A stretch of DNA of 64,000 nucleotides from an uncultured Actinomycetota bacterium. Its GTDB lineage: Bacteria > Actinomycetota > Acidimicrobiia > Spongiisociales > UBA4744. The stretch is from NCBI GenBank assembly GCA_963715305.1, contig CAVQSB010000007.1:123693-187692 (forward strand), read 5' to 3'. The translations under genes and the position numbers were made by a program. Below, one piece after another: positions 10,066 to 43,855 of the stretch (position 1 is its first letter; every line of letters starts with the position of its first letter). The notes under the pieces were generated by a model. That model saw only the letters and a program-made list of their open reading frames with translations. It had not been told where the DNA came from and searched no databases.

Positions 10066-10750
10066 CTACTCCGTCTCGCACTCGGTGAGCGCCGCATCCA
10101 TAATGTCGATAGCCCGACCCAGTTCCTCCATCGTCGTGATCAAGGGGGGAATGAACCGGATCTCGTTGTCATCGGGTCCGCAGCCGATCACGAAAATTTC
10201 GGTTTCGAATGAGTACCGGGCTACGAAGCGTATCGCCTCTGCGTCCAGCTCGCGCGACTCGCGATCCTTGACCAGTTCGATCCCGATCATCAGACCAAGT
10301 CCCCGAACCTCACCATCGGTGCTGTGCGCGACCTGCATTTTGTTGAGCCGCTCAAAGGCGTGCGCCGACAGTAGCGAGCGTGAGGAAGGAGTCCCCCCAT
10401 GGTGTCGATGACGGCACCAACAGCGGCACAGGAGACCGGGTTGCCCCCGAAGGTATTCCGTGGGAGCCGACCAGCCATCGGTCCATGACCTCGGCGGACC
10501 CGCCGAGGATATTCGCTGTGAAGTTCAGAACTGCCGGCTCACTGTCCTTGACTGCGGCGGTGAGGTCATACCCGTGGAGATGCACTGAATCGGGGGGGGG
10601 GGGGGGGGGGGAATCGGATCGGACGCGGACTTCGATGGTGTCGCCTTGTGATACTTCCGCTCGTCGGACACCGCCCTCGACTGCACCACCCCGGACTCGA
10701 TAGCGACGTCGGTTCTGGTGTGATGCCTGTGCGGCAACCTCGACCGACAC
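10066..10750 (-). pseudogene. Remnant of a class-III (PLP) aminotransferase C-terminal ~230 aa, at least two frameshifts, N-terminal ~200 aa missing; contains poly-G tract
   Basis: Fragments in three frames: ...ILGGSAEVMD, ...TFGGNPVSCAAVGAVIDTMGG and ...FERLNKMQVAHSTDGEVRGLGLMIGIEL. Frame changes sit at C6 (10393-10398) and C5 (10444-10448) runs. Sequence 10612-10795 has no aminotransferase similarity. Confidence 0.6.
10592..10611. repeat. 20-nt poly-G homopolymer flanked by direct repeat gaatcgg
   Basis: The sequence is ctgaatc-G20-aatcggatcgg. On the minus strand it would encode PPPPPP. Confidence 0.9.
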
Positions 10751-20091: not shown

Positions 20092-21624
20092 TCAATGTCG
20101 GCCGGGGCAATCGTTGCCTGCCGTTTCCGGCGAAGAAGGCTCTCGGATCCGTTCATCGGTTCTGCGGGTCATTGCGCCGTTGCGCAGTTCGACCAAACTC
20201 GGATGTGACGCAGGGCAGGGTGAGCGATCGGCGAGATGGCCGGATCGTACGACGCGTAGCCGACCGAGGATTTCATCACTTCCTCCCAGCATCGTTGCCG
20301 AAGCACGTTCCGGGTCGCCGGACCAGACCTGCAGCCCGCTGGAGTCCATCCAGTACAGACCGCTTCCGTCTCCCGACCAGGTGAAGCCCTGGGCCGGTTC
20401 GGTGGTGAGCAGCTGGCGAGTTGTACCGATCATGGACAGCACGGTCAAACCGTCGTTCCCATCCGGTCCCACCTGCCCCCGCACCGCCAGGTACCGCTTG
20501 AGGGGATCAAAAGCCCCCTCCAGTTGGAGAACCGAACCAGACCCGGACAGATCATTCGCGAAAGGGTCGAGAAGGTCGTCCCACCGGCGCACCACCCGTC
20601 CGGCCAGGTCGCGTAGCTCGAGACCTGCGCTGCCCCAGGCAGCTACCCGGGTATTCGAAACGGCGATCGCTCGTCCCGGCATCGACGTCCGGCTCACGCT
20701 GTTGGTGGCGAGATCCCAGAGGTAATAGCCACCCTGAAAGGCGTTGAGGGCCAGGAGAGACGAGTCGGGTGACCAGGCGAGGGACGCGATGGCTTCCACC
20801 GCGGTCGCCGCCGAGTCCCGGGGTGAGGTGAGTTCGAAGGACGGCGACCCCGCGGAATCGAGATTGGCGCCGATGGTCCAGACGAAGGGAACGCCCGTCG
20901 CATCGATCATGGCCAACCGGGTGCCGTCGGGCGACAGCAAAGGGGGCATGCTCTCCGACCCGGGCCAGAGCAGCAAGGCTGTTTCCTCGGCCCCCGGTCC
21001 GGATCCGATGAGGACCACCCGTTGCCCGGCCCGATCGACGCCGACCAGTCGTCCGTCGGGCAGGGCATCGACGATCACTGTGTCCGGCCCGATGTTGAGC
21101 AAGCCGGGCGTCAGTGATGGTCCGAAGAGCGGCTCCGGTCGGCTGGATGAGAACGAGAACCCGCCCACCCAGGTGCCCGAGGGAGGCCGCCACACATCCC
21201 GGGAGCTACCGGGTGCAGGCACGGTTGTCGTCGTTTGGGCAGTGATGGGAGGGGTCGTCGGGGTCTCGGCTTCGGGTTCCAGGCCTGAAGGTCCGGTGAG
21301 AACGGAGAGGTAGATGATGCCGCCGACCACGATTGCGGCGATGGGGGCCCACCGACCCGGTGCAAGTGGACGCTGGCGACCTCCCGGTTTCTCAACGTGT
21401 CCGGGCAGATCCGCGCCGGACGGTGGCGCCACGACCGGAACCGGTTGGGGAGGCGGGGGCCGTTGGTCGGGTTCGGTGGGCGGGTCGGTCGCGATCTCGT
21501 TGGCCCGGTCCTCGTGGAGTGGTGCAGCCTGGCGGTCGGACGGACGCCAGGTTTCGTTCGTGCAGGTTGGGCAGAGTGGAGATTCCACCGGGGTGTCGCA
21601 TACAAAGCAATAGCGATCTGCCAT
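20092..21624 (-). CDS. Zinc-ribbon (MADRYCFVCDTP...CPTC) - TM helix - Thr/Pro linker - PD40-like beta-propeller protein (N-terminal part; frameshift(s) near 20100-20250)
   Basis: ATG at 21624. There is a TM helix (WAPIAAIVVGGIIYLSVL). WSPDSS/WSGDGS repeats follow. The annotated ORF's first 50 aa upstream of MADRY look non-coding. Confidence 0.6.
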   Translation of the reverse strand: MADRYCFVCDTPVESPLCPTCTNETWRPSDRQAAPLHEDRANEIATDPPTEPDQRPPPPQPVPVVAPPSGADLPGHVEKPGGRQRPLAPGRWAPIAAIVVGGIIYLSVLTGPSGLEPEAETPTTPPITAQTTTTVPAPGSSRDVWRPPSGTWVGGFSFSSSRPEPLFGPSLTPGLLNIGPDTVIVDALPDGRLVGVDRAGQRVVLIGSGPGAEETALLLWPGSESMPPLLSPDGTRLAMIDATGVPFVWTIGANLDSAGSPSFELTSPRDSAATAVEAIASLAWSPDSSLLALNAFQGGYYLWDLATNSVSRTSMPGRAIAVSNTRVAAWGSAGLELRDLAGRVVRRWDDLLDPFANDLSGSGSVLQLEGAFDPLKRYLAVRGQVGPDGNDGLTVLSMIGTTRQLLTTEPAQGFTWSGDGSGLYWMDSSGLQVWSGDPERASATMLGGSDEILGRLRVVRSGHLADRSPCPASHPSLVELRNGAMTRRTDERIREPSSPETAGNDCPGRH

Positions 21625-21697
21625 GGGAAAAGGGTAGTGGGAGCGTCCGCCAAGCCCTGTGGGAGGTGCGAGCAGGGAGTGGAAGGTTTTTGGCGGG

Positions 21698-21732
21698 TGG
21701 TAACTGGTAACTGGTGACGGGAAACGGGAAAC
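21698..21732 (+). promoter_or_regulatory. Heptad tandem repeats (tggtaac)2-tggtgac-(gggaaac)2 occupying the 5'UTR directly before ATG 21742
   Basis: The repeats are read directly from the sequence. No SD-like purine run lies between the repeats and the start codon. Confidence 0.3.
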
Positions 21733-21741
21733 TAGGTCCCC

Positions 21742-22434
21742 ATGCTCCCCATCGCCATCCTGCAGAACGATCAAACTAACCCACCTGGTTTGTTGGGCAC
21801 CAGCCTGGCCGGCCGGAAACTTCCGTTTTCGCTGATCGAAGTGTTTCGCGGTGAGCCGATGCCCGATCTTGCCAAGGTGTCCGGTGTCGTGCTCCTCGGC
21901 GGTTCTATGGGCGCCTTTGAGGAGCAGGTGTACCCCTTCCTGGTCGAAGAAAAGGCCCTGGTGCGGGGAGCGGTTGACCAGGGGCTACCCGTGATGGGTA
22001 TCTGCCTTGGATGTCAGATCGTGGCAGACGCCCTGGGAGGACGGGCCTATCGTGTCGAGCCGCAAGAAGTCGGGCTCATCGATGTCCATGTGACGAGCGC
22101 AGGCGAGCGCGATGCGGTCCTGGCCGGCGTTGCAGGGGTTTTTGCATCCTGGCATCACGACAGCTTCGATCTCCCGTCCGGGGCTACCTTGCTCGCCGAG
22201 TCCCACCTCTACCCCCAGGCACTCCGTTTCGGCTCGGCCGTAGGAGTGCAGTTCCACCCGGAGGTGACGGCCGGGGTACTCGAAGACTGGATCGATTGCG
22301 GCGCGCCGGCTCTCCGCGAGGCGGGGGTCGACGGCGCCGGTCTGCTGCGTGCCTTCCACACCTCCCAGCCCGGCCTGCGCGATCGGGCAGACGCGTTATT
22401 CGGAGCCTGGATCGCTGAAGTGCTGCAAACCTGA
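21742..22434 (+). CDS. Class-I glutamine amidotransferase-like protein
   Basis: GATase1 triad context is present (GICLGCQ, HHD/HPE). Confidence 0.75.
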   Translation: MLPIAILQNDQTNPPGLLGTSLAGRKLPFSLIEVFRGEPMPDLAKVSGVVLLGGSMGAFEEQVYPFLVEEKALVRGAVDQGLPVMGICLGCQIVADALGGRAYRVEPQEVGLIDVHVTSAGERDAVLAGVAGVFASWHHDSFDLPSGATLLAESHLYPQALRFGSAVGVQFHPEVTAGVLEDWIDCGAPALREAGVDGAGLLRAFHTSQPGLRDRADALFGAWIAEVLQT

Positions 22435-25267: not shown

Positions 25268-26209
25268 ATGAAACGGTTCGTAGCGTTGGCAGTGGTTCTT
25301 GCGGCGATTGGATCCGCTTGTGGTTCTGCCGACAGCGGCACCGACGAGCGGCCGCTGGTGATCGCCACCACCACGATCCTCGGCGACCTGGTCGCCAATA
25401 CGGCCGGAGATGCCGTGCAAGTTGAGGTGTTGATGCCGGTTGGTGCCGATCCACACGACTTCGCTCTGTCGGCCCGCCAGGCCGCGCATCTTCGGGATGC
25501 AACCCTGGTGGTGGCCAATGGAGTCGGACTTGAGGAGGCGCTGCTGGATGTGTTGGCTGCGGCCGAGCAGGACGGAGTCGAGGTGATGAGAGTCGGTGAG
25601 CTCCTCAATCCCCAACCGTTTGTGGCAGGACCGACATCCGGCTCGTACGGAGATGTGGAAGGTTCCGGGTCGGATGGAAACGAGCAGGGCCTTGATGCCC
25701 ATGTGTGGATGGATCCGATCAGAATGGTCGATGCCGTCGACCTGATTGCCCAACGTATCAATGCGAGCACCGGTGTCGATATCGCGGCTTCCGCTGCCGC
25801 TTACCAATCCCGGATACTGGAACTCCACGAAGAGATCGTTCTGATGATCGATGGGGTGTCGCCGGAGCGTCGGAAGATGGTGACCAACCACTTCTCCTTT
25901 GGGTATTACGCAACCCGCTATGGGATCACCTTGCTCGGCACGGTGATCCCCACAGCCACAACGGGTGCGGAGACCAGCGCAGCCGACTTCGCAGCCCTGG
26001 TTTCACTCCTCAAGCGCGAAGGAGTATCCGTTGTTTTCGCCTCGGTCACAGAACCTACGACGCTCGCTGATGCTCTCGCCGAAGAGGTCGGCTACGAAGT
26101 GAAGGTGGTCAAGCTCTACACAGGCTCCGTGGGCGAGGCAGGATCGGGCGCCGAGACCTACATCGATATGATGCGCTCGAGTACCCGGCTCATTATCGAG
26201 AACCTGTAA
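25268..26209 (+). CDS. znuA: Metal ABC transporter substrate-binding lipoprotein (ZnuA/TroA family); ATG 25268 preferred over 25253
   Basis: SD AGAGAGGG is at the right spacing before ATG 25268. Signal/lipobox is MKRFVALAVVLAAIGSAC. It has the cluster A-I SBP fold. Confidence 0.8.
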   Translation: MKRFVALAVVLAAIGSACGSADSGTDERPLVIATTTILGDLVANTAGDAVQVEVLMPVGADPHDFALSARQAAHLRDATLVVANGVGLEEALLDVLAAAEQDGVEVMRVGELLNPQPFVAGPTSGSYGDVEGSGSDGNEQGLDAHVWMDPIRMVDAVDLIAQRINASTGVDIAASAAAYQSRILELHEEIVLMIDGVSPERRKMVTNHFSFGYYATRYGITLLGTVIPTATTGAETSAADFAALVSLLKREGVSVVFASVTEPTTLADALAEEVGYEVKVVKLYTGSVGEAGSGAETYIDMMRSSTRLIIENL

Positions 26210-26226
26210 TTGCGGGAGGGATCTGT

Positions 26227-27060
26227 ATGGATTGGCTGATCGACCCGCTCTCCGAGCCGTTCATGCAGCGCGTCCTGGTGGGAAGCGCCCTGGCGGTGAT
26301 GACGGCTTCTCTGATCGGGACCTGGATCGTCTTGCGGGGACTCAGCTTCATGGGTGACGCTCTCGCCCACGGGGTGACACCCGGGATAGCTCTGGCCTTC
26401 GCGCTCGGTTTCAACCTGACCCTGGGTGCCATAGGCGCAGCCGTCGCCATGACGCTGGGGATCAACCTCGTGCATCGCAAGGCCGGTCTTCGTGAGGACA
26501 CCGGCATCGGATTGCTGTTCGTCGGCATGCTGGCGCTCGGCGTCATTATCATGTCCCGCCTGCCTTCGTTCTCCAGCAATCTGGCCACCATTCTGTTTGG
26601 GGACACCCTCGGGATCAGGCGAGAGGACATTGTCGTGCAGGCGGTCGCGGCCGCCGTGACCCTGGTTGTCATCCTGGTGTTCTATAGGGCCTTCCTCGTC
26701 CTCTCCTTCAACGAGGAAAAGGCCGAGATGTTGGGACTACGGCCCCGTCTGGCGCACCTCGTGATGTTGTCATTGCTGACGCTGGCCATCGTGACCTCGT
26801 TCCGGACCGTGGGGACCCTGCTGGTCTTTGCGCTGATCGTTGCGCCGCCGGCCACGGCTTCACTGGTGGTCCGGAGGGTCCCCTCCATGATGGCAACGGC
26901 GGTCGCGTTTGGTTTTCTGGCCGTGCTGAGCGGCCTCTTGATCAGCTGGCATGCCGACACTGCTGCCGGAGCAACCATGGCCGCAATGTCGGTAACGATT
27001 TTCTTCTCCGTGCTGGCCTTGCGAGAGCTCATGAGCAAGAGACGAGTACCGGGCATGTAG
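26227..27060 (+). CDS. znuB: Metal ABC transporter permease (ABC-3 family)
   Basis: 277 aa with 8-9 TM helices and a ZnuB/MntB-like sequence. Confidence 0.8.
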   Translation: MDWLIDPLSEPFMQRVLVGSALAVMTASLIGTWIVLRGLSFMGDALAHGVTPGIALAFALGFNLTLGAIGAAVAMTLGINLVHRKAGLREDTGIGLLFVGMLALGVIIMSRLPSFSSNLATILFGDTLGIRREDIVVQAVAAAVTLVVILVFYRAFLVLSFNEEKAEMLGLRPRLAHLVMLSLLTLAIVTSFRTVGTLLVFALIVAPPATASLVVRRVPSMMATAVAFGFLAVLSGLLISWHADTAAGATMAAMSVTIFFSVLALRELMSKRRVPGM

Positions 27061-27192
27061 GACTGCCGCCTGCCTGGTCAGCGAGAGTCGCATCGTTCTG
27101 AGCTTGAGTGGTGCCGACCTCGGTCGACTAGTTCGTGGTTGATGGCCGCCGACTGGTCACCATTTCTGTGAGGCATCTACCATGGACCCGCT

Positions 27193-28353
27193 ATGGGTAA
27201 ACATCGCTCCGCCGTCCGGGATCACAATGTGAATGCCAGGTTGCGTCGGCTCTCGATCCTCTTCGGGTCCGCCGGTGTGTTTCTGGTGGCCATCTCCGGC
27301 TGGCAAGCTTGGACGGCCTATCAGGACATCGAGAGGGTGACCTTCGGCGACGCTGTTGCAGCTGCCGAGAACCTGGCAACCATCCCGGCCATTGAGGTCG
27401 AGGAACTCCGAGCGGCAGAGGATGTCTCCGAGGAAGCTTCGCAAGGCGACGACACGCTGAACCTCGAAGCGGACGTGCTGGCCGATTTGCAGCGCCGTCG
27501 AGACGAGTTCGGAGTTGGGCCGGAAGTTGTCGAGTTTCCGTTCGTGTCGAGCCCCCGACTTCCTGATGAGATGTTCACGTCCTATTTGCTGACGGGCGTG
27601 GAAGGCGGGTTTCGCGCCGATGCCATCATCTTTGTGCTGTTTCCCCAGGGCGGCTCGAGCCCCCCGCTCATGGTGTCTCTCCCCCGCGACCTGTACCTTC
27701 CCAACCCGTGCACGCAGCGCTACACGCGTGTCAACGCCGGTTTGGTCGGATGCAAGGGCTACGCGAGTGGTGCGGAGTTGCTTTCTCTGATGGTTTCCGA
27801 CTTCACGGGCATCGAGGTTGATCATTTCGCTCGGATCGACTTCAGTGGATTCCAGAAGGTCATTGACGCTCTCGGCGGCGTTGAGATCTGTGTCGAGCAT
27901 GCTGTTCGCGACGCCAAGTCGTTTCTGAACTTGCCGGCCGGTTGCACGCAAGCCACAGGTGTTCAGGCGTTGTCGTGGGTCCGATCCCGCCGAACTCAGG
28001 AGTACGTGGACGGTGCCTGGCGGACCGTTGCCGGGGTCAGCGACTTCACGCGACAGCAAAAAGAACAGGACATGTTGTTCAAGATCGCCGGAAAGCTGAA
28101 CTCGTTTTCGTCCTTCTCATCGTTTTCGCAGGTTGCCCAGAGTCTGACCGATACCGTGGCACTGGACGAGGGGTTCTCGTTCGGAGATGCCCTGTCGCTT
28201 GCCTGGGAGATGAGAGGTCTGAAATCTACAGATGTGTTCCGGGTCAAGGTAACAACCCGGAACTATGTGACGACCGCCGGGGCCTACGTGCTGCTTCCAA
28301 CGGCGTCGTTCAACGAGCGGCTCGCCCTGTATTACCCCGAAGCCGCCCGCTAA
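27193..28353 (+). CDS. LytR-CpsA-Psr (LCP) family cell-envelope phosphotransferase
   Basis: An N-terminal TM anchor is followed by an LCP domain (LLTGVEGGFRADAIIFVLFP...SLPRDLY...). Confidence 0.8.
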   Translation: MGKHRSAVRDHNVNARLRRLSILFGSAGVFLVAISGWQAWTAYQDIERVTFGDAVAAAENLATIPAIEVEELRAAEDVSEEASQGDDTLNLEADVLADLQRRRDEFGVGPEVVEFPFVSSPRLPDEMFTSYLLTGVEGGFRADAIIFVLFPQGGSSPPLMVSLPRDLYLPNPCTQRYTRVNAGLVGCKGYASGAELLSLMVSDFTGIEVDHFARIDFSGFQKVIDALGGVEICVEHAVRDAKSFLNLPAGCTQATGVQALSWVRSRRTQEYVDGAWRTVAGVSDFTRQQKEQDMLFKIAGKLNSFSSFSSFSQVAQSLTDTVALDEGFSFGDALSLAWEMRGLKSTDVFRVKVTTRNYVTTAGAYVLLPTASFNERLALYYPEAAR

Positions 28354-28388
28354 ATCGCCGCGCGCGAGAAGTGGTTGTTGGTTCCCGG

Positions 28389-28784
28389 CTACCTCTCGAC
28401 CAATTCGAACGTAGTTTCGATGGGAACATTGCCCCGTATCACGGCCGCAACCGAGCACATCTCGGTGTGGCTGCGGTGGATGGCGTCTTCTACCTGGTCC
28501 GCCGTGAGGGCCTGTCCTGTCACCCGGTAGTGAAGCCGGAATCTTTGGAACTTCCAGGGAGGATCAGGCTCTTTCGTGAACGTGACCTCGATCGACAGGC
28601 CGGTCAGGTTCTCACCGAGTTGCGACACGAGGTCGACGCCGGAGCACGATGCCAGCGCCATCGGCAGAAGGTGAGATGGGCGGACCCCTAGTGCTTGACG
28701 CCCGTCGATATCAACGGGTATACCTTTTGAGTCGGTCCCGTCGAACCGCAGTTGACCTTCCCAGGTGACCGTTACTGCCGCCAT
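28389..28784 (-). CDS. OsmC/Ohr family peroxiredoxin-like protein
   Basis: 131 aa with conserved Cys residues (ALASCSG, EMCSV). Confidence 0.8.
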   Translation of the reverse strand: MAAVTVTWEGQLRFDGTDSKGIPVDIDGRQALGVRPSHLLPMALASCSGVDLVSQLGENLTGLSIEVTFTKEPDPPWKFQRFRLHYRVTGQALTADQVEDAIHRSHTEMCSVAAVIRGNVPIETTFELVER

Positions 28785-28955
28785 GTCCTATCGTCTTCCT
28801 TTCAGAACTCTGGCTAGACAAATCGGATCCGGTATTTCCTGTCAAATCGACCGCCGGCATGGGGGGCGAATGGAGGTTTCGGTAGTGCAAGGCGGCTCAT
28901 CCTTGGCTAAGTTGTCGGTGCACCCTTCAACGGGCGCGCGAAGGAGGAAAGGGTT

Positions 28956-30656
28956 ATGAAAAAACGACTACCAATCTTGGCAGTGCTGTTGGCGTTGACG
29001 CTGATCGCTGCTGCCTGTGCAGGGGACGCCGAGACAACGACAACGGCGGCGCCTGGAACGACCGAAGCCCCGGGTACGACCGAAGCTCCGGGTACGACCG
29101 AAGCCCCGATGGATTTTGAGGGTGCAGTCCTCGATGCCGGTGGGTGTGATTACGGTGGCCGGGTTGAGAAAATCTCGGCAATAGACCAGTACACCGTTGA
29201 GTTCGATCTGTGCGGTCCGCATCCGGCGTTCCTGGCGCAGATGGCTTTCATCGTCTTCGGGATCCAGCCTGAAGAGCATTTCGCCGCCACCGGTGGCGCA
29301 CCACTCGACAACCCGGTCGGAACGGGACCCTTCTCTTTGAAAGAGTGGGTCCGGGGCGACTCGGTGGTCTTTGAGCGGTTCGATGACTACTACGGGCAGG
29401 TTGCGCCGCAATCAACCCTGGTTCTCAAGTGGGCAACGGAGAGCGCCGGTCGTTTGCTGGAGCTCCAATCCGGTACGGTTGATGGAATCACCTTCCCCGG
29501 CACTGAGGACCTGGAAACGATCGAAGACGATCCCAACCTGGTTCTGCTCACCAAGCCGGAGCCGAATATCTTCTATGTGGGCTTCACCAACACCTTCGAG
29601 CCGTTCGACAATGTCGACGTCCGCAAGGCGATTGCCATGGGCATCGACCGTGAGCGGATCGTGGATACGTTCTACGCTCCGGGGTCAGAAGTTGCCTCAC
29701 ATTTCACGCCGTGCTCCGTGGAGAACGGTTGTGAGGGCGAATCGTGGTACGAGTTCGATGCCGCAGCCGCCAAGCAGATGCTGGCCGATGCCGGATTCCC
29801 GAACGGGTTCTCGACATCGATCTTCTATCGCGATGTGACCAGGGGCTATCTGCCGACACCTGGTGATGTGGCAGCCGATCTTCAGGCTCAGCTCAAGACG
29901 AACCTGAACATCGACGCCGAGGTGGTTGTTATGGAATCAGGGGAGTTCATCCAGGCCTGCTCGACGGCGGGCACCTGCGATGGCATCCACTTGTTGGGTT
30001 GGACGGGCGACTACCCGCACGTCACCAACTTCCTGGACTTCCACTTCGCTGAGAACAACGCCCAGTTCGGCAGTCCGCATCCGGAGATCTACGAACCTCT
30101 GGCAGCGGCTTCGCAACTGGCATCCGCTTCGGAAGCAGCTCCGCTCTACGCAGAAGCCAACAACGCCATCAAGGCACTGGTGCCCATGGTGCCGATCGCC
30201 CACGGCAATGCGTTCTACGCAGCCCAGGCCGCGGTACAGGGTTCCTTTGCTCCCCCGTGGGGAGATGTGGTGTTCAATCTGTGGGACAACGGCGGAGACA
30301 CGATGGTGTTCATGCAGGGCAACGAGCCGATCTCTCTGTATTGCGCAGACGAGACCGACGGCGAGTCCCTGCGTGCCTGCACCCAGGTCCTCGAGGGCTT
30401 GTACTCCTACACGACCGACGGATTGGTCCAGCCGCAGCTGGCCACCGAGTGTGTGCCGAACGAAGATCTGAGTCTGTGGACCTGCTCGCTCCGCGAGGGC
30501 GTGCTCTTCCACGACGGGTCGACGTTCGACGCCAACGACGTGGTGGCCACGTTCTCGGTTGGTCTGGATGCCGCCAACCCGCTACACGTTGGTAACAGTG
30601 GAGTGTTCGAGTACTACGACTACCTATTCAATGGCCTCATCAACGCAGAGTCGTAA
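28956..30656 (+). CDS. ABC transporter substrate-binding lipoprotein, family 5 (peptide/nickel, DppA/OppA-like)
   Basis: Lipobox AAACAG. The linker contains APGTTE x3. It has the SBP_bac_5 fold. Confidence 0.85.
   Translation: MKKRLPILAVLLALTLIAAACAGDAETTTTAAPGTTEAPGTTEAPGTTEAPMDFEGAVLDAGGCDYGGRVEKISAIDQYTVEFDLCGPHPAFLAQMAFIVFGIQPEEHFAATGGAPLDNPVGTGPFSLKEWVRGDSVVFERFDDYYGQVAPQSTLVLKWATESAGRLLELQSGTVDGITFPGTEDLETIEDDPNLVLLTKPEPNIFYVGFTNTFEPFDNVDVRKAIAMGIDRERIVDTFYAPGSEVASHFTPCSVENGCEGESWYEFDAAAAKQMLADAGFPNGFSTSIFYRDVTRGYLPTPGDVAADLQAQLKTNLNIDAEVVVMESGEFIQACSTAGTCDGIHLLGWTGDYPHVTNFLDFHFAENNAQFGSPHPEIYEPLAAASQLASASEAAPLYAEANNAIKALVPMVPIAHGNAFYAAQAAVQGSFAPPWGDVVFNLWDNGGDTMVFMQGNEPISLYCADETDGESLRACTQVLEGLYSYTTDGLVQPQLATECVPNEDLSLWTCSLREGVLFHDGSTFDANDVVATFSVGLDAANPLHVGNSGVFEYYDYLFNGLINAES
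29047..29100 (+). repeat. 3 x 18-nt coding tandem repeat (APGTTE)3 in SBP linker
   Basis: The unit gcnccgggtacgaccgaa occurs three times. Confidence 0.7.
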
Positions 30657-34834: not shown

Positions 34835-35082
34835 AACCGGGCAGGTGAATCGGACGGCGGGCCGGCCGACGACCAATAACTGGTAGCGTCCGACCTATGG
34901 GCGCCTGGTTACGTCGGTTTGGCACGACCGCAGCTGCGGTTTTCCTGGGCGGATCGTTGTCTGATCGCGTTTGGAATCGCCGCCATGCAACTCCTCCTGG
35001 ACGGGCTCGATCCTGCCCGAATCGAAGAGGGAACCAGAGAGCGCGGCGGTGCAACTGGGCGTTCCCGCAGGCATTCGCAGAC

Positions 35083-35403
35083 ATGAGCGTGATGGCGACC
35101 ATCTCCGGCATCGTTGTCCTGCTGTTCGTACTCGTTTCGGTGATCGCCCTGCTCGGTGTGGCCCTGAGGCGGCAAGGATTTCGCGAAGCCGCACTCGGGG
35201 TCTTTGCTGCTTTCGCCATCGTCATGATTCCGCTCGGTATCAGTGGCCGGGTGGCCGACCCTCCCGCGGAGAACGCGATGGTCGGCATCATGGTCGGGTT
35301 GGTTTCCGGCCTGGTGGTCGTGCTCCTGGCGGTGCCGGCCACATCGTTGACGTTCGATCAGGCCGAGGTCGATCATCGGCGAAAGCAGGCTCGCCGGACC
35401 TAG
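35083..35403 (+). CDS. Small hypothetical membrane protein (3 TM)
   Basis: It starts MSVMATISGIVVLLFVLVSVIALLG... The upstream part of ORF 34897 looks non-coding. Confidence 0.35.
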   Translation: MSVMATISGIVVLLFVLVSVIALLGVALRRQGFREAALGVFAAFAIVMIPLGISGRVADPPAENAMVGIMVGLVSGLVVVLLAVPATSLTFDQAEVDHRRKQARRT

Positions 35404-35411
35404 AGGCCCAA

Positions 35412-36708
35412 TCAGATCTCGAGCGTTTCGAGTCTTTCGAACACGATCGCCGAGTTGGCGAGGGATCTTTCGATCGAGAAGCATGACCTGAGTCGTTCCG
35501 ATGTCAGATCGACCGCCGGATCTTTCTTCAAGAGATCGAGCAGATGCCCACCACCGTCCCACGACGCCAGGGCATTGCGCTGCACGATCCGGTAAGCATC
35601 ATCGCGGCTCGATCCGTCCTCAACGAGGGCCAGAAGCACGGCCTGACTGAAGACCAGGCCGCGGGTGCCTTCGAGATTGGCCAGCATGCGGTCGTGGTCG
35701 ACCTCGAGATGTTCGATCAACCCCGCGAACTTGACGAGCATGTAGTGCAGGACATGACAGGCGTCCGGGATGATCACTCGCTCGGCCGAGGAATGGCTGA
35801 TGTCGCGCTCGTGCCAAAGAGCAACGTTCTCGAGCCCCACCTGCCGCGTAGCCCCGGAGGAGTCGTGCCATCCCGGTCATTCGTTCCGAGAGGATCGGGT
35901 TGCGCTTGTGCGGCATGGCCGACGATCCCTTCTGCCCGGGCCTGAACGCTTCACGAGCTTCCCGCACCTCCGACCGCTGCAGGTGGCGGATCTCGGTGGC
36001 AAATCGCTCGATCGAAGCACCCGTCAACGCAACGGCCTGCAGGAACTCGGAGTGCCGATCGCGGTGGGTCACCTGTGAGGACACCGGTTCGATGCCCAAC
36101 CCGAGGTGCTCGCAGACGTAGCGTTCGAGGCGGGGTGGTGTGTGAGCATAGGTCCCCACCGCGCCACTGATCTTGCCAACGGCTACGGCCCGGCGGGCCC
36201 GGGTGAGCCGTTCGTGATCCCTGGCCAGCTCAAAGGCCCACGTAGCGAGCTTCAAGCCGAAGGTGGTCGGCTCCGCCCAGATGCCGTGGGTACGTCCCAG
36301 CATGGCCGTGGCGCGATGCTCCAGTGCTTTCCCCTTGACAACTTCGAAGAGTCTTTCGGTTCCGCCGAGCAGCAATCCGGCCGCTTCGTTGAGCAGCACG
36401 CCCTGCGCAGTATCGAGGACATCGGACGAGGTGAGCCCGTAATGGACCCATTCGCCGCCCGTGGCCGTGTTCTCGGCGAGCAGATCGACGAATGCCGCCA
36501 GATCATGGTTGGTTATCTCTTCGCGCGCTCTCCAGGCGACGGGATCGACCGGGTCGGCGCGCCGGACCGCGGCGGCCGCCTCCGGGGGAGCCACCCCGAG
36601 TTCGCTCCATCCCTCGACGACCAGAGCTTCGACTTCTTGCCAGACCGCCAGCTTGCGTTCTTCGGACCAGACGGCCGCCATGTCCGGAAGCGTGTAACGA
36701 GGGATCAT
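35412..36708 (-). CDS. purB: Adenylosuccinate lyase; frameshift near 35830-35880
   Basis: MIPRYTLPDMAAVWSEE... N-terminus (B. subtilis-type PurB). It has the SSxMPHKxN signature. The C-terminal 140 aa are in ORF 35412..35840. Confidence 0.85.
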
Positions 36709-36716
36709 GGGAAGAA

Positions 36717-36747
36717 GTTATCAGTTATCAGTCGTCAGTTGTCAGTT
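36717..36747 (-). promoter_or_regulatory. Heptad tandem repeats (minus-strand reading: tgacaac-tgacgac-tgataac-tgataac) in the purB 5'UTR, ending 9 nt before the start codon
   Basis: Plus strand reads gttatcagttatcagtcgtcagttgtcagtt. There is no SD between the repeat and ATG. GGAGAAAC lies upstream of the repeat, ~40 nt from ATG. Confidence 0.3.
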
Positions 36748-36821
36748 TCTCCTGGTCGCTGATACCTGAAAGGACGGTCGCAGGCCGACCGACTGATCAC
36801 TCGTGACGGCGAGGCGGTGGC

Positions 36822-37283
36822 TCAGCGCTGTGACTCCTCGGCCAGCTCGGCCCGATACTCGGCCAAGCGCTTCGCAAGGCCCTCGTCCTGCAGAGCCAGG
36901 ATGGCGATGGCCAGAAGGGCTGCGTTGGCCGATCCGTCGACGGCGACGGTCGCCACAGGGATGCCGGTGGGCATCTGGACCGTGGCCAGCAGAGCATCCA
37001 GGCCTTGGAGAGAGGCGCTGAGGGGCACGCCGATGACCGGAAGGAGTGATTTGGCGGCCATGACACCGGCGAGGTGGGCGGCTTTTCCTGCGCCGGCGAT
37101 GATGACCGAGAATCCCTGGTCGGCCGCTGTGGCTGCAAACACAAACGCGGCATCCGGCGTCTTGTGTGCCGAGAGCACCCGCACTTCGTGCCCGACGCCG
37201 AACCGGGCCAGGGTATCGCCGGCCGCCTGCATCTTGGGTTGATCCTTGGCGGATCCCATCACAATGGCGACCTTGCTCATCAC
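36822..37283 (-). CDS. purE: N5-carboxyaminoimidazole ribonucleotide mutase
   Basis: 153 aa. MSKVAIVMGSxSD ... AGKAAHLAG is present. Confidence 0.9.
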   Translation of the reverse strand: MMSKVAIVMGSAKDQPKMQAAGDTLARFGVGHEVRVLSAHKTPDAAFVFAATAADQGFSVIIAGAGKAAHLAGVMAAKSLLPVIGVPLSASLQGLDALLATVQMPTGIPVATVAVDGSANAALLAIAILALQDEGLAKRLAEYRAELAEESQR

Positions 37284-38551
37284 ATACCTTTCGTTAATCC
37301 GGCAATGTCAGATCGGTACTGCTTTCCGTCAAATCTGATGGCTTCTGCACCCGCATAGGCGATGCGGCGGGCTTCGGCGAGGGAACCGGCAGTTCCGACC
37401 ACGTTCATCACCCGGCCCCCGCTGGTTTTCAGGGTTCCGAACTGACGGGTGGTGCCGGCATGAAAGAGGGTGATACCCGCCATCGCCGCGGCCGTTGTGA
37501 CACCCCTGATCGGATCTCCCAGGCGCGGTTGTTCCGGGTAACCGTGCGCGGCCAGCACGACATCCACGGCTGCGTTATCCGACCAGGTGAGTTCCAGGCT
37601 GCCAGCATCACCATCGAGACAAGCCAGGATCGCCCCGAGCAGGTCGGTGTTGAGCAGCGGAAGTACCACCTGAGTTTCGGGGTCGCCCAGGCGGCAATTG
37701 AACTCGAGCACCCGGGGGCCCTGCTCGGTGAGGACGAGGCCCGCATACAGGAAGCCCCGGTACGGGTGTCCCTCTAATTCCATGTGCTGCAACACCGGTT
37801 TCATGACGTGATCGACCGTCCATTCGACCAGTCCGGCCGGGAGGTCATCGACCGGCGAGTAGCAACCCATGCCTCCCGTGTTGGGTCCCTGGTCGTTGTT
37901 GCCCAGGCGTTTGTAGTCACGCGCCGGTTGCAGCGGCACAGCTTCGGTGCCATCACACATCGCGAACACACTTACTTCCGGCCCGGCCAGGTAGTCCTCG
38001 ATCACGATCGTCTGCCCGGCCTCGCCGAAGGCACCTTCGAAACAGTGGTCCACCCAGCCCCGGGCTTCCTGAAGGTCGCTGGTGACGATCACCCCTTTGC
38101 CGGCCGCCAAACCGTCGGCCTTCACCACGAAAGGCCCCGGTTGTCTCTCCAGAAAGTCGAGGGCCGGGGTGCGATCAGTGAAGGTCTCGGCCCGGGCGGT
38201 TGGCACACCGGCCCCTTCCATGATCGATTTGGCGAAAGACTTCGAGGACTCCAGTCGGGCGGCAGCCCGTGACGGTCCAAAGGCTCTGACTCCCTGTGTG
38301 GTCAGAGCATCGACCACTCCCGCAGCCAGGGGTCCTTCGGGTCCAACCACCACCAGGTCGACGTCCTGCTGATGGGCGAAAGCCGCGACCGCGCCGACGT
38401 CGGTCGGCGATACTCCGTCGACGACCGCTCCAAGTTCCGCCAGACCCGGGTTGCCTGGCAGGGAGGTCAGGCTCGTGAGCAGTTCGCTTTGGGCAAGTTT
38501 CCACCCGATGGCGTGTTCGCGTCCCCCGCCACCAAGCAGGAGGACCTTCAT
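37280..38551 (-). CDS. purD: Phosphoribosylamine--glycine ligase
   Basis: MKVLLLGGGGREHAIGWKL... The ATP-grasp domain is present. Confidence 0.9.
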   Translation of the reverse strand: MKVLLLGGGGREHAIGWKLAQSELLTSLTSLPGNPGLAELGAVVDGVSPTDVGAVAAFAHQQDVDLVVVGPEGPLAAGVVDALTTQGVRAFGPSRAAARLESSKSFAKSIMEGAGVPTARAETFTDRTPALDFLERQPGPFVVKADGLAAGKGVIVTSDLQEARGWVDHCFEGAFGEAGQTIVIEDYLAGPEVSVFAMCDGTEAVPLQPARDYKRLGNNDQGPNTGGMGCYSPVDDLPAGLVEWTVDHVMKPVLQHMELEGHPYRGFLYAGLVLTEQGPRVLEFNCRLGDPETQVVLPLLNTDLLGAILACLDGDAGSLELTWSDNAAVDVVLAAHGYPEQPRLGDPIRGVTTAAAMAGITLFHAGTTRQFGTLKTSGGRVMNVVGTAGSLAEARRIAYAGAEAIRFDGKQYRSDIAGLTKGM

Positions 38552-39825
38552 GACGATCGGGTCAGGACTTGCGAGCGTTCCGGCCCGACCGACACCCAGT
38601 TGATGGGAACTCCGGTGCGTTTCTCGATGAATTCGATGTACTGCTGGGCTGTGCCGGGAAGGTCGGAGAATTTCCGCACCCCGGTTATGTCCGTCTTCCA
38701 GCCGGGGAGTTCCTCGTAGATGGGCGTGCAGTCGTAGAGAACTCGCTGCTGTCGGGGCAACTCGGTGTACGTCTCTCCGCGGGAGCTATACGCCACGGCA
38801 ACGTGCAACGTGTCGAATTCGGAGAGGATGTCGAGCTTGGTGAGGAAGATGTCGGTGAGGCTGTTGACCCGTGCTGCATAGCGCAGGGCGACGAGATCGA
38901 GCCACCCGCAGCGCCGCCGGCGCCCGGTGACCGTGCCGAACTCTCCTCCGACGGTGACCATGGTTTCGCCGATCTCGTCGGATAGCTCTGTCGGGAATGG
39001 TCCGGTGCCGACCCGGGAGATGTATGCCTTGGCGACCCCGACCACTCGATCGATCGCTTTTGGCCCAACTCCCGATCCGGTCAGTGCCCCACCGGCGGTC
39101 GGACTTGACGAGGTGACAAAAGGGTACGTCCCGTGGTCGATATCGAGCAGCGTTCCCTGGGCGCCTTCGAACAGGACCTCCTGGTTGGCCTCGATCGCCT
39201 CCCAGATCAGCAGCGACGAGTCCGTAACGAACGGGAGGAGCGTTTCTGCGTAGGTGAGATACTCGGTGGCAATCTGCTCAGCGTCCATAGGTAGCTGGTT
39301 GTAGACCCGCGTAAGCAGTTTGTTCTTGTCGGCCAGGGCTACCGCAAGCTTGTCGCGGAAGATCTTCGGGTCGAAGAGGTCCTGGATTCGGATCCCCTGC
39401 CGGGAGTATTTGTCGGTGTAGGCCGGGCCGATGCCTTTCTTCGTCGTACCGATCATCTGGCGTCCCAGATACCGTTCCATGACCGCGTCGAGCTTGCGGT
39501 GATAGGGCATGATGAGGTGGGCATTTGAGGAAATCCGCAGCCGGGACGGGTCGACGCCGCGCCCGGTCAGCATGGATATTTCGTCGAGCAGAACCTTCGG
39601 GTCTACGACGCAACCGGAGGCAATGACCGGCGTGCAGTTCGGATACATAACCCCGCTGGGGATCAACGATAGGGCGAAACGTTCCGTCCCGATGACGATG
39701 GTGTGGCCGGCGTTGTTGCCGCCCTGATAGCGCACGACCAGGTCGGCTCGTTCGGCGAAAACGTCGGTTACCTTGCCTTTTCCCTCATCGCCCCATTGGG
39801 CGCCGAGCACGATCGTGGCGGGCAT
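38548..39825 (-). CDS. purA: Adenylosuccinate synthetase
   Basis: QWGDEGKGK P-loop and GGNNAGHT are present. Confidence 0.9.
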   Translation of the reverse strand: MPATIVLGAQWGDEGKGKVTDVFAERADLVVRYQGGNNAGHTIVIGTERFALSLIPSGVMYPNCTPVIASGCVVDPKVLLDEISMLTGRGVDPSRLRISSNAHLIMPYHRKLDAVMERYLGRQMIGTTKKGIGPAYTDKYSRQGIRIQDLFDPKIFRDKLAVALADKNKLLTRVYNQLPMDAEQIATEYLTYAETLLPFVTDSSLLIWEAIEANQEVLFEGAQGTLLDIDHGTYPFVTSSSPTAGGALTGSGVGPKAIDRVVGVAKAYISRVGTGPFPTELSDEIGETMVTVGGEFGTVTGRRRRCGWLDLVALRYAARVNSLTDIFLTKLDILSEFDTLHVAVAYSSRGETYTELPRQQRVLYDCTPIYEELPGWKTDITGVRKFSDLPGTAQQYIEFIEKRTGVPINWVSVGPERSQVLTRSS

Positions 39826-39978
39826 GACTTGGCTCCTTGATGGCCGGGCCGGGTCATGGTAGTGGTGGGGGCCAGGGCTGCATCCTGCTGCTGAGGTGGC
39901 TTATCCGGGTCCCGCCTCTCAGCCATGTAGGGCTCATGGAATCACTATGCTCAGTCACCTTGAACTGGAGGGATCACC

Positions 39979-40590
39979 GTGCCGCGCATCCGCGCAGCAA
40001 ATATCGAAGAACATAAAGAACTGACCCGCGGGCAGATTCTGCAGGCCGCCCAAGAGCTCTTCCAGGCTGAGGGGTATACCGAGACGTCCCTGGGCGACGT
40101 TGCCAACCGCATCGGGATCGGCCGGACGACCTTCTACGAGTACTTCACCGATAAGGAAGATCTGTTGTGCTCACTGGTCGAGTCAACCTTGCCGGGGATC
40201 ATCAGCGACATCATCGCGAATGTGCCCAGGGATGTGGGCCCTTCAGAACAACTCTCCCACCTGGCCATCGGGATGGTCGAATTCGTTTCGACCGATGCCA
40301 TGCTGGGGCGGGTCCTCCATACCGACGCTTCGCGGCTCTCCCCGTCTGCGCAACTCCGCGTCCGGGCCACCCACCACGAATTCGCCAATGAGTTCATGCG
40401 TATCTACATGGAAGGGGTCGGCTCCGGGACGCTGCGACCCTATCCTCCCGATCTGGCCGGCCGGTTTCTGCAGGAATTGATGATGTCGGCGGCCCGCTCG
40501 TTGATTGCTCTCAAGGAACCGGCCGAGCGTTTACCCGAGGTGACCCGCAGCATGGTCGATTTCATGCTGCACGGCCTCAGCACCAGATGA
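39979..40590 (+). CDS. TetR-family transcriptional regulator
   Basis: GTG start with SD GGAGGG. It has an HTH (…TSLGDVANRIGIGRTTFYEYF…). Confidence 0.8.
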   Translation: MPRIRAANIEEHKELTRGQILQAAQELFQAEGYTETSLGDVANRIGIGRTTFYEYFTDKEDLLCSLVESTLPGIISDIIANVPRDVGPSEQLSHLAIGMVEFVSTDAMLGRVLHTDASRLSPSAQLRVRATHHEFANEFMRIYMEGVGSGTLRPYPPDLAGRFLQELMMSAARSLIALKEPAERLPEVTRSMVDFMLHGLSTR

Positions 40591-41789
40591 CCCGCCTCCT
40601 TTTCCGGGGAGGGACGGTCTTCGACGGGACCGGCGCGCCTGCGGCGCTCGCCGACGTGACTATCGAGCACGGACGGATCGTCGAGGTCGGCCCAGGACTC
40701 GACGGAGATCAGGCCATCGATTGCACCGGGTCCCACCTTCTGCCGGGCCTGTTTGATACCCACGTTCACGTCATGCTCAGCCATATCGACATGTGGCGGA
40801 TGGTTCAGACCCCCTTTTCCTATCGGTTCTTCGAGGCATCCAAGAACCTGGCGGCGACCCTTCAAGCCGGGATCACCACTGTGCGCGACGCGGGAGGAGC
40901 GGACCTTGGTGTAAAACAGGCTCTCGCCGATGGCCTTATCGCAGGTCCGCGGATGCAGATCTCGCTCATCATGCTGTCCCAGACCGGCGGACATGGTGAC
41001 GGATGGATGGCCTCCGGCGGCACCGTCGATCTCTTTCCTCCCTATCCCGGCATGCCCGAGTCGATTGTCGACGGTATCGACGACATGCGGCGCAAGGTGC
41101 GGGAGCTGGTTCGAGATGGTGCCGACGTGATCAAAGTGGCCACGTCTGGGGGGGTGCTTTCACCGCGCGATGAGCCTACCCATGCCCACTTCCGGTTAGC
41201 CGAACTGGAGGTCCTGGTCGAAGAAGCCACGGCGGCGGGCATCAGCGTGATGGCGCACGCCCAGGCGACGGTCGGTATCAAGAACGCCATTCAAGCGGGG
41301 ATCCGATCGATCGAACACGGGATCTACCTCGATGATGAAGCGATCGAGATGATGCTCGAGCGAGGCACGTTCCTGGTACCAACCCTGGTCGCTCCGACCG
41401 GGGTCCTGCGCGCCGCGGCGGCGGGCGCCCAGATCCCTGAGGCATCGCTGACAAAAGCTCGCGACGTGATCGAATCTCATCGCGATTCGTTCGGCCGGGC
41501 GGTGGCGGCCGGAGTCAAGATCGCCATGGGCACCGACACCGGGGTAACCCCCCACGGCGAGAACCTGGCGGAGTTAGCCCTCATGGTCGAAGGGGGCATG
41601 ACCCCACACGAGGCCCTGGTAGCAACCACCAGGACGGCCGCCGAGCTGATGGGACTCGACGACGAATTGGGAACCCTCGAGCCGGGCAAACGAGCCGACC
41701 TGGTGATGGTGGAGGGCGACCCCCTCGAATTCGGCGAACTCCCCGACCGCATAACCCAAGTCTGGAAAGACGGCGAGAGGGTCGTCTAG
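40587..41789 (+). CDS. Amidohydrolase-family metal-dependent hydrolase (co-operonic with TetR)
   Basis: HVHVM metal-binding motif and a TIM-barrel amidohydrolase layout. It overlaps the TetR stop by 4 nt. Confidence 0.8.
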   Translation: MTRLLFRGGTVFDGTGAPAALADVTIEHGRIVEVGPGLDGDQAIDCTGSHLLPGLFDTHVHVMLSHIDMWRMVQTPFSYRFFEASKNLAATLQAGITTVRDAGGADLGVKQALADGLIAGPRMQISLIMLSQTGGHGDGWMASGGTVDLFPPYPGMPESIVDGIDDMRRKVRELVRDGADVIKVATSGGVLSPRDEPTHAHFRLAELEVLVEEATAAGISVMAHAQATVGIKNAIQAGIRSIEHGIYLDDEAIEMMLERGTFLVPTLVAPTGVLRAAAAGAQIPEASLTKARDVIESHRDSFGRAVAAGVKIAMGTDTGVTPHGENLAELALMVEGGMTPHEALVATTRTAAELMGLDDELGTLEPGKRADLVMVEGDPLEFGELPDRITQVWKDGERVV

Positions 41790-41793
41790 AACA

Positions 41794-41850
41794 CGGTTTT
41801 GGCGTCGATCTAACACCAAGGGCGGTGGAGGATTGACGCCAAAACCCGTA
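41794..41850 (+). terminator. Long hairpin (14/15-bp stem acggttttggcgtc ... gacgccaaaacccgt, ~28-nt loop) right after amidohydrolase stop
   Basis: The arms are inverted repeats read from the sequence. Confidence 0.4.
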
Positions 41851-41963
41851 GTCGGGGCCCCGCTAGCTTTGGAGGAAGAACTATTGATGCATCTCACCGA
41901 ATCAACCGATAGTGGTGAGAGACCTATAGGGCCGGTTATCCCGGTGGTTGGTGCGGAGGTCGG

Positions 41964-43439: not shown

Positions 43440-43855
43440 CCCTCGTTCGGGCAGCCGGTGGGCTGGTCAGCCGGATCGGCAAAGCAGGCGACCTCCAGGT
43501 TCTCCTGGTCCATCGTTCGCGCTACAACGACTGGAGCTTTCCCAAAGGGAAGTTGGATGACGGTGAATCTTTTGAAGACGCCGCGCGGCGAGAGGTCACT
43601 GAAGAGACCGGTCTGATCTGTCGCCTGGACGGAGAGCTGGCTCCCGTCCGTTACCTGGATTCCGCCGGCCGGCCCAAGTTCGTACGGTATTGGCACATGA
43701 TCCCGATCGAAGGGGATATCCGCGATTTTGAATACAACGCCGAGATCGATGACCTGCGGTGGGTCGGGGTGGGAGAGGCTGAGGCATTGCTGAGCTACCA
43801 GCACGACCGTGAGCTACTCAAACCTTGGCGGGATGGCCGCTTCGGGTCCGGTTAG
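43436..43855 (+). CDS. NUDIX hydrolase (GTG start overlapping CHAD stop)
   Basis: Nudix box GKLDDGESFEDAARREVTEETG is present. Confidence 0.75.
   Translation: MTLVRAAGGLVSRIGKAGDLQVLLVHRSRYNDWSFPKGKLDDGESFEDAARREVTEETGLICRLDGELAPVRYLDSAGRPKFVRYWHMIPIEGDIRDFEYNAEIDDLRWVGVGEAEALLSYQHDRELLKPWRDGRFGSG

Follow-up and report, generated by a model that had tools for sequence, protein, structure and literature searches.

We analysed a stretch of 64,000 nucleotides of contig CAVQSB010000007.1 (hereafter the window; GC content 62.7%) from an uncultured bacterium of the Acidimicrobiia, in which three tandem arrays of seven-nucleotide units lie between genes. Array 1 precedes a gene for a class-I glutamine amidotransferase (GATase), array 2 precedes the adenylosuccinate lyase gene purB, and array 3 follows a gene for a small membrane protein. 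The explanation that we favour, with moderate confidence, is that these arrays are heptanucleotide microsatellites of the lineage, that the last unit of the purB array resembles a −10 promoter element and goes together with leaderless expression of that gene, that the GATase array is variable, and that array 3 is a 3′ end element.

The arrays are non-random and have a period of seven

Array 1 (21698-21732, plus strand) consists of two TGGTAAC units, TGGTGAC and two GGGAAAC units; in another register it contains TAACTGG twice. Array 2 (36714-36748, minus strand) reads AAACTGA, CAACTGA, CGACTGA, TAACTGA and TAACTTC, followed by TTCCC and the ATG of purB at 36708. The minus-strand reading of array 3 (59145-59190) is GCAGCGA, four copies of TCAGCAA, TGCAGCAA and a further stretch beginning with TCAG; it has a period of 7 with 6.4 copies and one indel, and its plus-strand unit is CTGATTG. 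Tandem Repeats Finder (TRF) counted 5.1, 4.6 and 6.4 copies in the three arrays. When re-phased, the units of arrays 1 and 2 take the form NAACTGR, with AACTG/CTGR as the shared core. TAACTGR is found five times in the window against 3.3 copies expected by chance, and exact TAACTGA occurs once, followed by TAACTTC, and is never exactly doubled.

In our own period scan of the window at a score of at least 12, period 7 gave the three arrays and period 6 gave one array (of two at that period), while no arrays were found at periods 5, 8, 9, 10 and 11. No period-7 array of equal score arose in 100 third-order Markov simulations of the window. Because the scan finds period-7 arrays and the simulations give none, the arrays are real and not a product of chance; they are built of head-to-tail 7-nt units beyond chance, as are heptanucleotide long simple sequence repeats (SSRs). 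An earlier note on this DNA had reported three non-random arrays with a common unit core, and direct reading of the sequence, TRF and our scan confirmed their sites, their non-randomness and the core.

Several other identities were considered. A known RNA family, tRNA or riboswitch was rejected, as no Rfam match reached the gathering threshold in the whole window, and neither a tRNA nor a transfer-messenger RNA (tmRNA) was found in it. G-quadruplexes as in the heptad arrays of Xanthomonas and Nostoc were rejected on inspection, array 1 having only two GGG runs. The window arrays close all three forward frames, as a three-frame stop cassette would, but the corresponding purB arrays of some relatives (GGNAACT, type B below) and the units of several other relatives are without stop triplets, and the cassette was rejected. 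A mobile element of the miniature inverted-repeat (MITE) or repetitive extragenic palindromic (REP) kind was set aside, the copies not being near-identical to one another. Our scan found no intrinsic terminator (GC-rich hairpin plus U-tract) at arrays 1 or 2, and the sole strong terminator site near array 3 (59465-59447, minus strand) lies upstream of the small gene. No E. coli-type promoter was found at the arrays by a scan that says little on actinobacterial promoters.

The arrays belong to a lineage-wide class of intergenic repeats

Relatives were obtained from protein searches, and syntenic contigs (L081/L082 and L164-L176) were compared; the resulting lineage sample comprises the window and about 170 kb from relatives. 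By purB, the nearest species representatives are metagenome-assembled genomes (MAGs) of Actinomycetota/Acidimicrobiia with at most 73% identity. Among the contigs, purB homologues reach 97-98% (L167), 90% (L168-L170), 88% (L171-L173) and 83% (L081) identity, and hemD homologues 95%, 87% and 83%; a GATase homologue with 100% identity (P0001) also exists, on a contig of 270 kb. Several of the relatives' proteins are annotated as coming from Acidimicrobiia bacterium MAGs. The DNA of L167 is 92.5% identical to window positions 34897-46652 over 11.7 kb.

Across some 230 kb of non-redundant lineage loci we counted roughly 32 arrays, which corresponds to one array every 7 kb or so; almost all are intergenic, and the window is the locus poorest in arrays. 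At a score of at least 9, nine lineage loci gave 25 arrays at period 7, as compared with 3 at period 5, 10 at period 6, none at period 8, 10 at period 9 and 1 at period 10; L175 and L176 contribute ten further period-7 arrays. Of the periods not divisible by three, 7 predominates, and the arrays are both over-represented and non-coding in location. Their units fall into a few families, namely NAACTGR (equivalent to GGNAACT or TGNNAAC), TAGCCRG, CAGCART and GAAACCN, plus singletons. Within a total of 173 loci (2.35 Mb), at least two consecutive NAACTGR units were confined to the lineage loci. In relatives, the density of single NAACTGR units in spacers is only about double that in genes, the arrays supplying most of the excess.

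Both ends of genes carry arrays. Some lineage arrays stand at 3′ ends and overlap stop codons, the NAACTGR family is also present at 3′ ends between convergent genes (L166, L167), and array units occur behind unrelated genes (OsmC, histidine phosphatase, ABC transporter). The arrays are present in independent ENA, JGI, NCBI and Logan assemblies and are therefore no assembly artefact; the Logan contig L164 terminates inside one. The window arrays belong to a lineage-wide class of heptad SSRs that fills intergenic DNA. In the earlier note they were held to be not just random microsatellites, a description that needs reversing: though non-chance, they are microsatellites, part of a lineage-wide heptad SSR population at gene 5′ and 3′ ends. 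We propose that replication slippage or template switching creates and reshapes such arrays. As 7 is not divisible by 3, they would persist outside genes only, and they may spread until a functional border stops them, be it the stop or start codon of a gene or a −10 element. No dedicated binding factor would be involved.

Heptad arrays, often as inverted pairs, were also seen in unrelated phyla including Pyrinomonadaceae (L064 10-92; L066 2926-2991 and 9697-9780; L003 255-303 and 730-762; L020 9938-9965). Several of them stand directly upstream of purB, and the pair in L064 ends at the ATG.

The purB array is conserved and ends in a −10-like element

The purB gene (35415-36708, minus strand; Pfam PF00206, Lyase_1) lies downstream of purE (36822-37283, minus strand; Pfam PF00731, E 4.6e-56), with a spacer of 113 nt in the window. 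Array 2 ends 5-8 nt 5′ of the purB ATG in sense orientation, and no Shine-Dalgarno (SD) sequence lies between the two. Every syntenic relative with a purE-purB spacer has a counterpart of array 2, with heptads directly before the ATG. Five distinct spacer versions were found; the heptad phase relative to the ATG is identical in all of them, and all five end in TG(A/G/T)TA(A/C)CTT-N6-ATG. For purB, recurrence of the array at the orthologous leader was thus borne out.

In the window, the last two array units form an extended −10-like element, TGATAACTT (TGnTAnnnT; 36715-36723, minus strand), which is separated from ATG 36708 by six nucleotides (CTTCCC). The TANNNT hexamer is completed solely by the ATG-abutting unit in each spacer version. 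TGnTAnnnT is the extended −10 consensus, and actinobacterial leaderless genes, as established for Mycobacterium and Streptomyces, have a −10 TANNNT about 6-7 nt upstream of the start codon, transcription starting at its A or G. The purB start shows this arrangement as TAACTT-N6-ATG without an SD, and more distant Acidimicrobiia purB genes retain GGCATCATC-N6/7-GTG.

The spacers themselves are of two types. Type A (window, L171/L173) has about 60 unique nucleotides followed by AAACTGA CAACTGA (C/T)GAC(T/C)GA T(A/T)ACTGA TAACTTC. Type B (L167, L168-L170, L081) begins at the purE stop codon with 2-4.7 copies of TAGCCRG and continues, after a loop, with 4-10 copies of GGNAACT. In the three closest species representatives (L001-L003), purE abuts purB without a spacer, and the other distant relatives examined have various genes upstream of purB and no array.

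From these motifs, the most likely reading is that purB also gives rise to a leaderless mRNA, the last heptad unit being its −10 element; this would account for the absence of an SD, which such an mRNA would not need. The earlier note had described the repeats as replacing the SD region in a 5′ untranslated region; for purB this is probably the wrong frame, as the TGnTAnCTT conserved at 6 nt from the ATG suggests a leaderless mRNA. We suggest that array 2 is the 3′ part of a structure following purE, that its last unit, 6 nt from the ATG, is preserved as an element of the extended −10 kind, and that an AT-rich, weakly structured array may be kept upstream of the purB promoter.

Two small open reading frames (ORFs) in this spacer were considered. 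A coupling ORF ending at the purB ATGA, as in mycobacterial interspersed repetitive units (MIRUs), was rejected, being precluded by an in-frame TAA six codons upstream and by stops in all three frames of the window spacer, as judged by eye. In the type-A spacer (window 36749-36821, minus strand, against L171 9890-9974), one reading frame is kept as SDQSVGLRPSFQ.SA.RRN*, and its AGG AGA versus CGT CGA, both Arg-Arg, represent two synonymous changes; the frame has an ATG in L171 and an ACG instead in the window, which leaves the window copy without a start codon.

The purB gene of the window is split by a 1-nt insertion near 35841, where one extra G gives ctacgcgGcaggtgg as compared with ctacgcgcaggtgg in L167. 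A tblastn comparison with the 98%-identical protein P0121 placed residues 1-291 and 289-431 in different frames (switch at 289-291). The extra G is either a sequencing error or a sign of a recent pseudogene.

Leaderless-type starts and Shine-Dalgarno usage

Under the rule of PMC4679880, a 4-nt core counts as an SD. Among the lineage genes with an upstream spacer of at least 30 nt (n = 50), 12 have a TANNNT 5-8 nt before the start and 19 have an SD core; both together occur in none. Genes with short spacers never have a TANNNT at leaderless distance (0/38). The profile of TANNNT gaps before called starts has its maximum at 6-7 nt (12 of 58 genes); other gaps hardly occur except for a cluster at 9 nt.

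For the window, 27 starts were fixed by orthology, that is, projected from the called genes of relatives. These replaced the calls of our own codon-usage gene finder, which was too noisy and mis-called GATase and purB. An SD core of at least 4 nt is present at 11 of the 27 starts and a leaderless-type TANNNT at 4, with neither at the remaining 12. The earlier assertion that most other genes in the window have clear SDs could not be upheld, since only about 40% have an SD core; the absence of an SD at the arrayed genes is therefore ordinary for this genome.

Two further genes of the window share with purB a TANNNT 6-7 nt before the start and the absence of an SD. At the first (34877-34899, plus strand), a single TAACTGG unit abuts TAGCGT, followed by seven nucleotides and ATG 34897, so that the TG of an extended −10 comes from the heptad. 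The second is the gene divergent from GATase (21622-21636, minus strand), with TACCCT (21636-21631), six nucleotides and ATG (21624-21622); here TA(C/G)CCT, 6-7 nt and a start codon are kept in L164, L165 and L166.

At the starts of LytR-family genes (window 27193, L081 15485, L164 15479, L166 16136, L167 19838, L171 12904), CATCTACCATG(C/A/G)G stands upstream of the called ATG. The TACCAT lies 8-9 nt before this ATG, and another ATG overlaps the motif. Either the called start may be wrong or the leader may be very short.

The GATase array varies among relatives

The GATase gene (21742-22434, plus strand; Pfam PF00117, E 1.8e-14) follows a 117-nt divergent intergenic region in which array 1 is located. 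Array 1 ends 9 nt 5′ of ATG 21742 in sense orientation, with TAGGTCCCC in between. This interval contains AGGT, a 4-nt SD core (about 21735-21738, plus strand; about −8 to −4, in the context ctAGGTcccc ATG). The earlier note had seen no purine-rich SD between repeat and start codon at either gene; this is correct for purB, but at the GATase gene AGGT, a weak SD core, lies in between. By eye, no canonical TANNNT was seen on the plus strand in 21625-21741, where the nearest matches are two TGGTAACTG stretches within array 1 that resemble an extended −10.

We compared the leaders of GATase relatives with 59-68% identity, in which the start of the protein is kept as M(L/R)PI..LQND. The L164 leader carries (GAGGAAC)2 directly before the ATG, duplicating an SD, and the L165 leader carries (AAGAACG)3 25 nt upstream. 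Those of L081 and L166 have no array and show TACGAT-N6-ATG and TACTCT-N7-GTG, respectively. The units found across relatives share only a loose GRRRAAC form. Because the leaders carry different units or none, the site is, to judge from this comparison, repeat-prone and the array itself unconserved, and the conservation expected of a functional leader was not borne out here. Array 1 may be a lineage-variable microsatellite in a divergent promoter region, a view for which the evidence at this gene is thin.

Arrays turn over between relatives and are stable within genotypes

Changes of copy number or unit at the same site were found between relatives for the purB spacer (types A and B, TAGCCRG from 2 to 4.7 copies), the GATase leaders and the 3′ end of the small gene. 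The window and L167, with about 92% DNA identity, have purE-purB spacers of different type, and behind the histidine-phosphatase gene a plain hairpin in the window corresponds to a (CAGTYTC)4 array in L167. Contigs from different samples that encode the same purB protein carry identical spacers; this holds for two genotypes, L168/L169/L170 and L171/L172/L173, each with three independent samples. Repeat numbers were not found to differ among near-identical strains, as they would in phase-variable contingency tracts. As far as these comparisons go, array change is a matter of the time scale of species or strain divergence, unlike that of fast phase-variable tracts.

We regard it as very improbable that the arrays are operators, that is, sets of binding sites for a regulator, for instance of purine genes, or phase-variable contingency tracts. 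Both start-proximal arrays lie in a purine-gene neighbourhood, and the TGATAAC unit may resemble a half-site of Fur-family 7-1-7 boxes. A Nostoc preprint reports that deletion of a heptamer array changes the reporter or promoter read-out, with a mechanism not established there. Against this, the other pur promoters in the window have no comparable array, on which ground a purine-regulon operator was rejected, and the same units stand behind the unrelated OsmC, phosphatase and transporter genes and at 3′ ends. Contiguous 7-bp sites would also fall on different helix faces, which would be awkward for cooperative duplex binding, and the identical copy number within each genotype speaks against a contingency tract.

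The relatedness of the window and L167 is mosaic (window 34897-46652 and 25649-29056): 92.5% identity over 11.7 kb is followed by 70-77% in a peptide ABC-transporter operon and then by 93.8%. This pattern suggests recombination between lineages.

Array 3 and predicted hairpins at gene ends

The conserved small gene next to array 3 (59192-59377, minus strand) encodes a 61-aa protein with a hydrophobic helix and no Pfam family, and has a perfect SD, AGGAGG (59390-59385), 7 nt upstream of its ATG. Its orthologs in L174-L176 (48-66 aa) adjoin hemD, which lies at 58316-59011 in the window and was assigned by Pfam, and share MGS.I..IAGAAIFAGASWLGRYA.SIRRGYRHDPQ.K.VWWTPGQ. The stop codon TAG of the small gene occupies 59194-59192, and array 3 starts two bases later at 59190, between convergent genes. 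It is a stop-proximal array at the 3′ end of an opposite-strand gene and not a leader element related to arrays 1 and 2. A parallel is TAG-(CAGCAGT)4 after OsmC in L167, and the orthologous 3′ ends carry (AATCAGC)5 in L175 and (TAGTTTC)3 paired with (GAAACCT)4 in L176.

Beside hemD, the longest ORFs of hemD (plus strand) and a Na/Pi cotransporter gene (minus strand) overlap by about 230 nt at their 5′ ends (window 58316-58544). Relatives call the cotransporter start further in (345-380 aa), and the start of the long ORF in the window is probably placed too far upstream.

Another explanation is that the arrays are mainly one arm of long, periodically interrupted RNA or DNA hairpins that end or stabilise the upstream transcript (purE or the small membrane-protein gene), their adjacency to start codons being incidental. 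In type-B spacers, a regular hairpin is predicted whose helices consist of CCAGU from the stop-proximal array and ACUGG from the start-proximal one and are split by 2x2 internal loops; in L167, where (TAGCCAG)n faces (GGNAACT)n, this fold reaches −32.7 kcal/mol (z −2.1). L166 (z −1.95) and L168 have a type-B-like module after the stop codon of OsmC as well. Downstream of the small gene, (UAGUUUC)3 with (GAAACCU)4 in L176 gives z −3.65, with 0/200 shuffles as stable, and L174 has a single-unit 13-bp version over the stop codon. For purB in the window, a local hairpin is predicted (36722-36768, minus strand), whose 5′ arm CAGGTATCAGCG (36768-36757) pairs with array 2 units 3-5, CGACTGATAACTG (36734-36722). 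Its minimum free energy (MFE) is −14.3 kcal/mol (z −2.16, 6/200 shuffles as stable), which is modestly significant, and the equivalent hairpin in L171 is shifted in register by one unit (z −2.9). Inverted heptad arrays in other phyla (L003, L064, L066) fit the same picture.

Other folds argue against hairpins as the main role. In their full context, the window arrays have no excess structure (z −0.18, +0.72, +0.06, −0.12), the whole 131-nt purB spacer reaching only z −0.18. For array 1, there is no complementary partner and RNA structure is not in excess (z +0.4 to +0.7), in L164 the arrays fold less than their shuffled counterparts do (z +2.5), and a U-tail is absent from all hairpins examined. 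As a general account, the hairpin explanation is unlikely. The best sign in its favour is that units differ between relatives while the arms stay complementary, which suggests that some arrays may act as hairpin arms, and the stop-proximal array pairs of relatives are predicted to fold into long periodic hairpins resembling terminators or stabilisers.

Other features of the window

A run of 20 G at 10592-10611, with 'gaatcgg' on either side, may be a real homopolymer or an artefact that two-colour sequencing chemistry brought into the assembly. An 18-nt unit is repeated 2.8 times in frame at 29058-29108, near the N-terminus of a solute-binding protein gene (28956-30656), and is probably a low-complexity linker.

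Comparison with known repeats

The closest known system is that of the TAACTGA direct repeats (MacGregor 2015, PMC4679880). These repeats end just before start codons, usually without an SD, and have no established function; S1, Csp and CsrA-like proteins were proposed as binders. The groups reported are Beggiatoaceae, Thiocystis, Cyanobacteria and five Bacteroidetes, with no Actinomycetota among them.

The window and lineage arrays resemble these repeats in several respects. The units AAACTGA, CAACTGA, TAACTGA and TAACTGG share their core, occur in sets of 2-6 often broken by related 7-mers, and are mostly intergenic and forward, ending a few nucleotides before the start and usually without an SD. 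Some sets extend into the 3′ end of the preceding ORF, and orthologous spacers differ by 7-nt steps or are without an array. Forward, start-proximal placement is seen in arrays 1 and 2 and not in array 3, and purB lacks an SD, while AGGT in the GATase leader counts as one under the 4-mer rule of PMC4679880. In contrast to the TAACTGA repeats, the window units are degenerate (NAACTGR), without the at least two exact TAACTGA of the strict definition; the host is a high-GC actinobacterium with several further unit families in the same lineage; and the last purB unit coincides with a leaderless-type −10 element. We consider the arrays to be intergenic heptanucleotide repeats of the TAACTGA type, here in an actinobacterium. 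Our reading of the literature turned up no −10 element that lies within a tandem heptad array and is made up of its units.

In many bacteria, no class of intergenic SSR exceeds expectation as strongly as heptamers, for which an origin by slippage has been put forward (Mrazek 2007, as cited in PMC4679880 and PMC4692102). Examples are the GGGAATC arrays of Xanthomonas and the GGGGA(T/C)T arrays of Nostoc (Rehm et al. 2015, PMC4692102) and the cyanobacterial short tandemly repeated repetitive (STRR) heptamers; the Xanthomonas arrays occupy the same intergenic sites in relatives with extensive variation and inverted pairs. The arrays of the present lineage are like such long SSRs in their period-7 excess, intergenic location, presence between the same gene pairs with variable length and sequence, and hairpin-forming inverted pairs. 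Unlike the Xanthomonas and Nostoc heptads, they are not G-rich, form no quadruplexes, are short (3-7 units) and stand tight against stop and start codons. They further resemble MIRU and REP elements in occupying operon spacers, touching stop and start codons and being able to form hairpins. MIRUs, in contrast, have units of 40-100 bp with coupling ORFs, which the window spacer does not allow, and REPs are dispersed high-identity copies, which is not the case here.

Several observations weigh against a microsatellite origin combined with leaderless purB expression. Four of the five TAACTGR copies in the window are in sense orientation to a start codon that follows within 30 nt. The near-identical TAACTGA heptamer precedes start codons in three other phyla, and a few unit families (NAACTGR, TAGCCRG, CAGCART, GAAACCN) recur at unrelated loci; a mutational origin leaves both unexplained. 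The identical purB spacers in the three samples of each genotype give no sign of hypermutability. The GATase start has no TANNNT at leaderless distance, and at purB the leaderless call is drawn from the position of a motif. Of 29 start regions, that of purB (−30 to +30) folds most weakly (MFE −6.3, the median being about −15.7), which equally fits a translational role on a purE-purB transcript.

On that alternative, the NAACUGR array in the mRNA (the purE-purB co-transcript or a short GATase leader) would be a translational element of the TAACTGA type, an unstructured, SD-free platform for the ribosome that acts directly or via S1 or another RNA-binding protein, as proposed for Beggiatoaceae. 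We consider this possible and rather unlikely. The unit core, the forward orientation, the end within about 10 nt of the ATG and the missing SD match the description in PMC4679880, in line with the weak structure at the purB start, the sense, start-proximal TAACTGR copies and the purB array kept in all syntenic relatives with a spacer. However, function is unproven in the original system too, the same unit family occurs at 3′ ends between convergent genes in L166 and L167, and at the GATase gene relatives have another array or none. In a wider sequence context, the purB start is no more than averagely accessible (0.41), because the array pairs with upstream sequence, and the conserved piece at purB, TGnTAnCTT-N6-ATG, has the geometry of a promoter.

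A broader version appears quite improbable to us: the NAACTGR/TAACTGA arrays would be a true cis element of four phyla (Beggiatoaceae, Cyanobacteria, Bacteroidetes and Acidimicrobiia), read by conserved machinery (S1 or RNA polymerase/sigma) for SD-independent expression, with complementary stop-proximal arrays (TAGCCAG and others) pairing to couple a gene end to the next start. The functional cis element suggested in the earlier note fared unevenly: the arrays are non-random and recur at purB, but they also stand at 3′ ends, turn over fast and are unconserved at the GATase gene.

Implications

Arrays of this kind break assemblies and can mislead gene callers on starts, stops and ribosome-binding sites in Acidimicrobiia MAGs. 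Heptamer arrays close to start codons have been known in several phyla for more than 10 years without a demonstrated function. New here is a case from a high-GC actinobacterium with nearly the same unit, which is kept in phase with the start codon across relatives of 83-98% identity and whose last unit doubles as a −10-like element. The purB case offers a testable alternative to the translational hypothesis, in which the array would provide part of a promoter for a leaderless mRNA.

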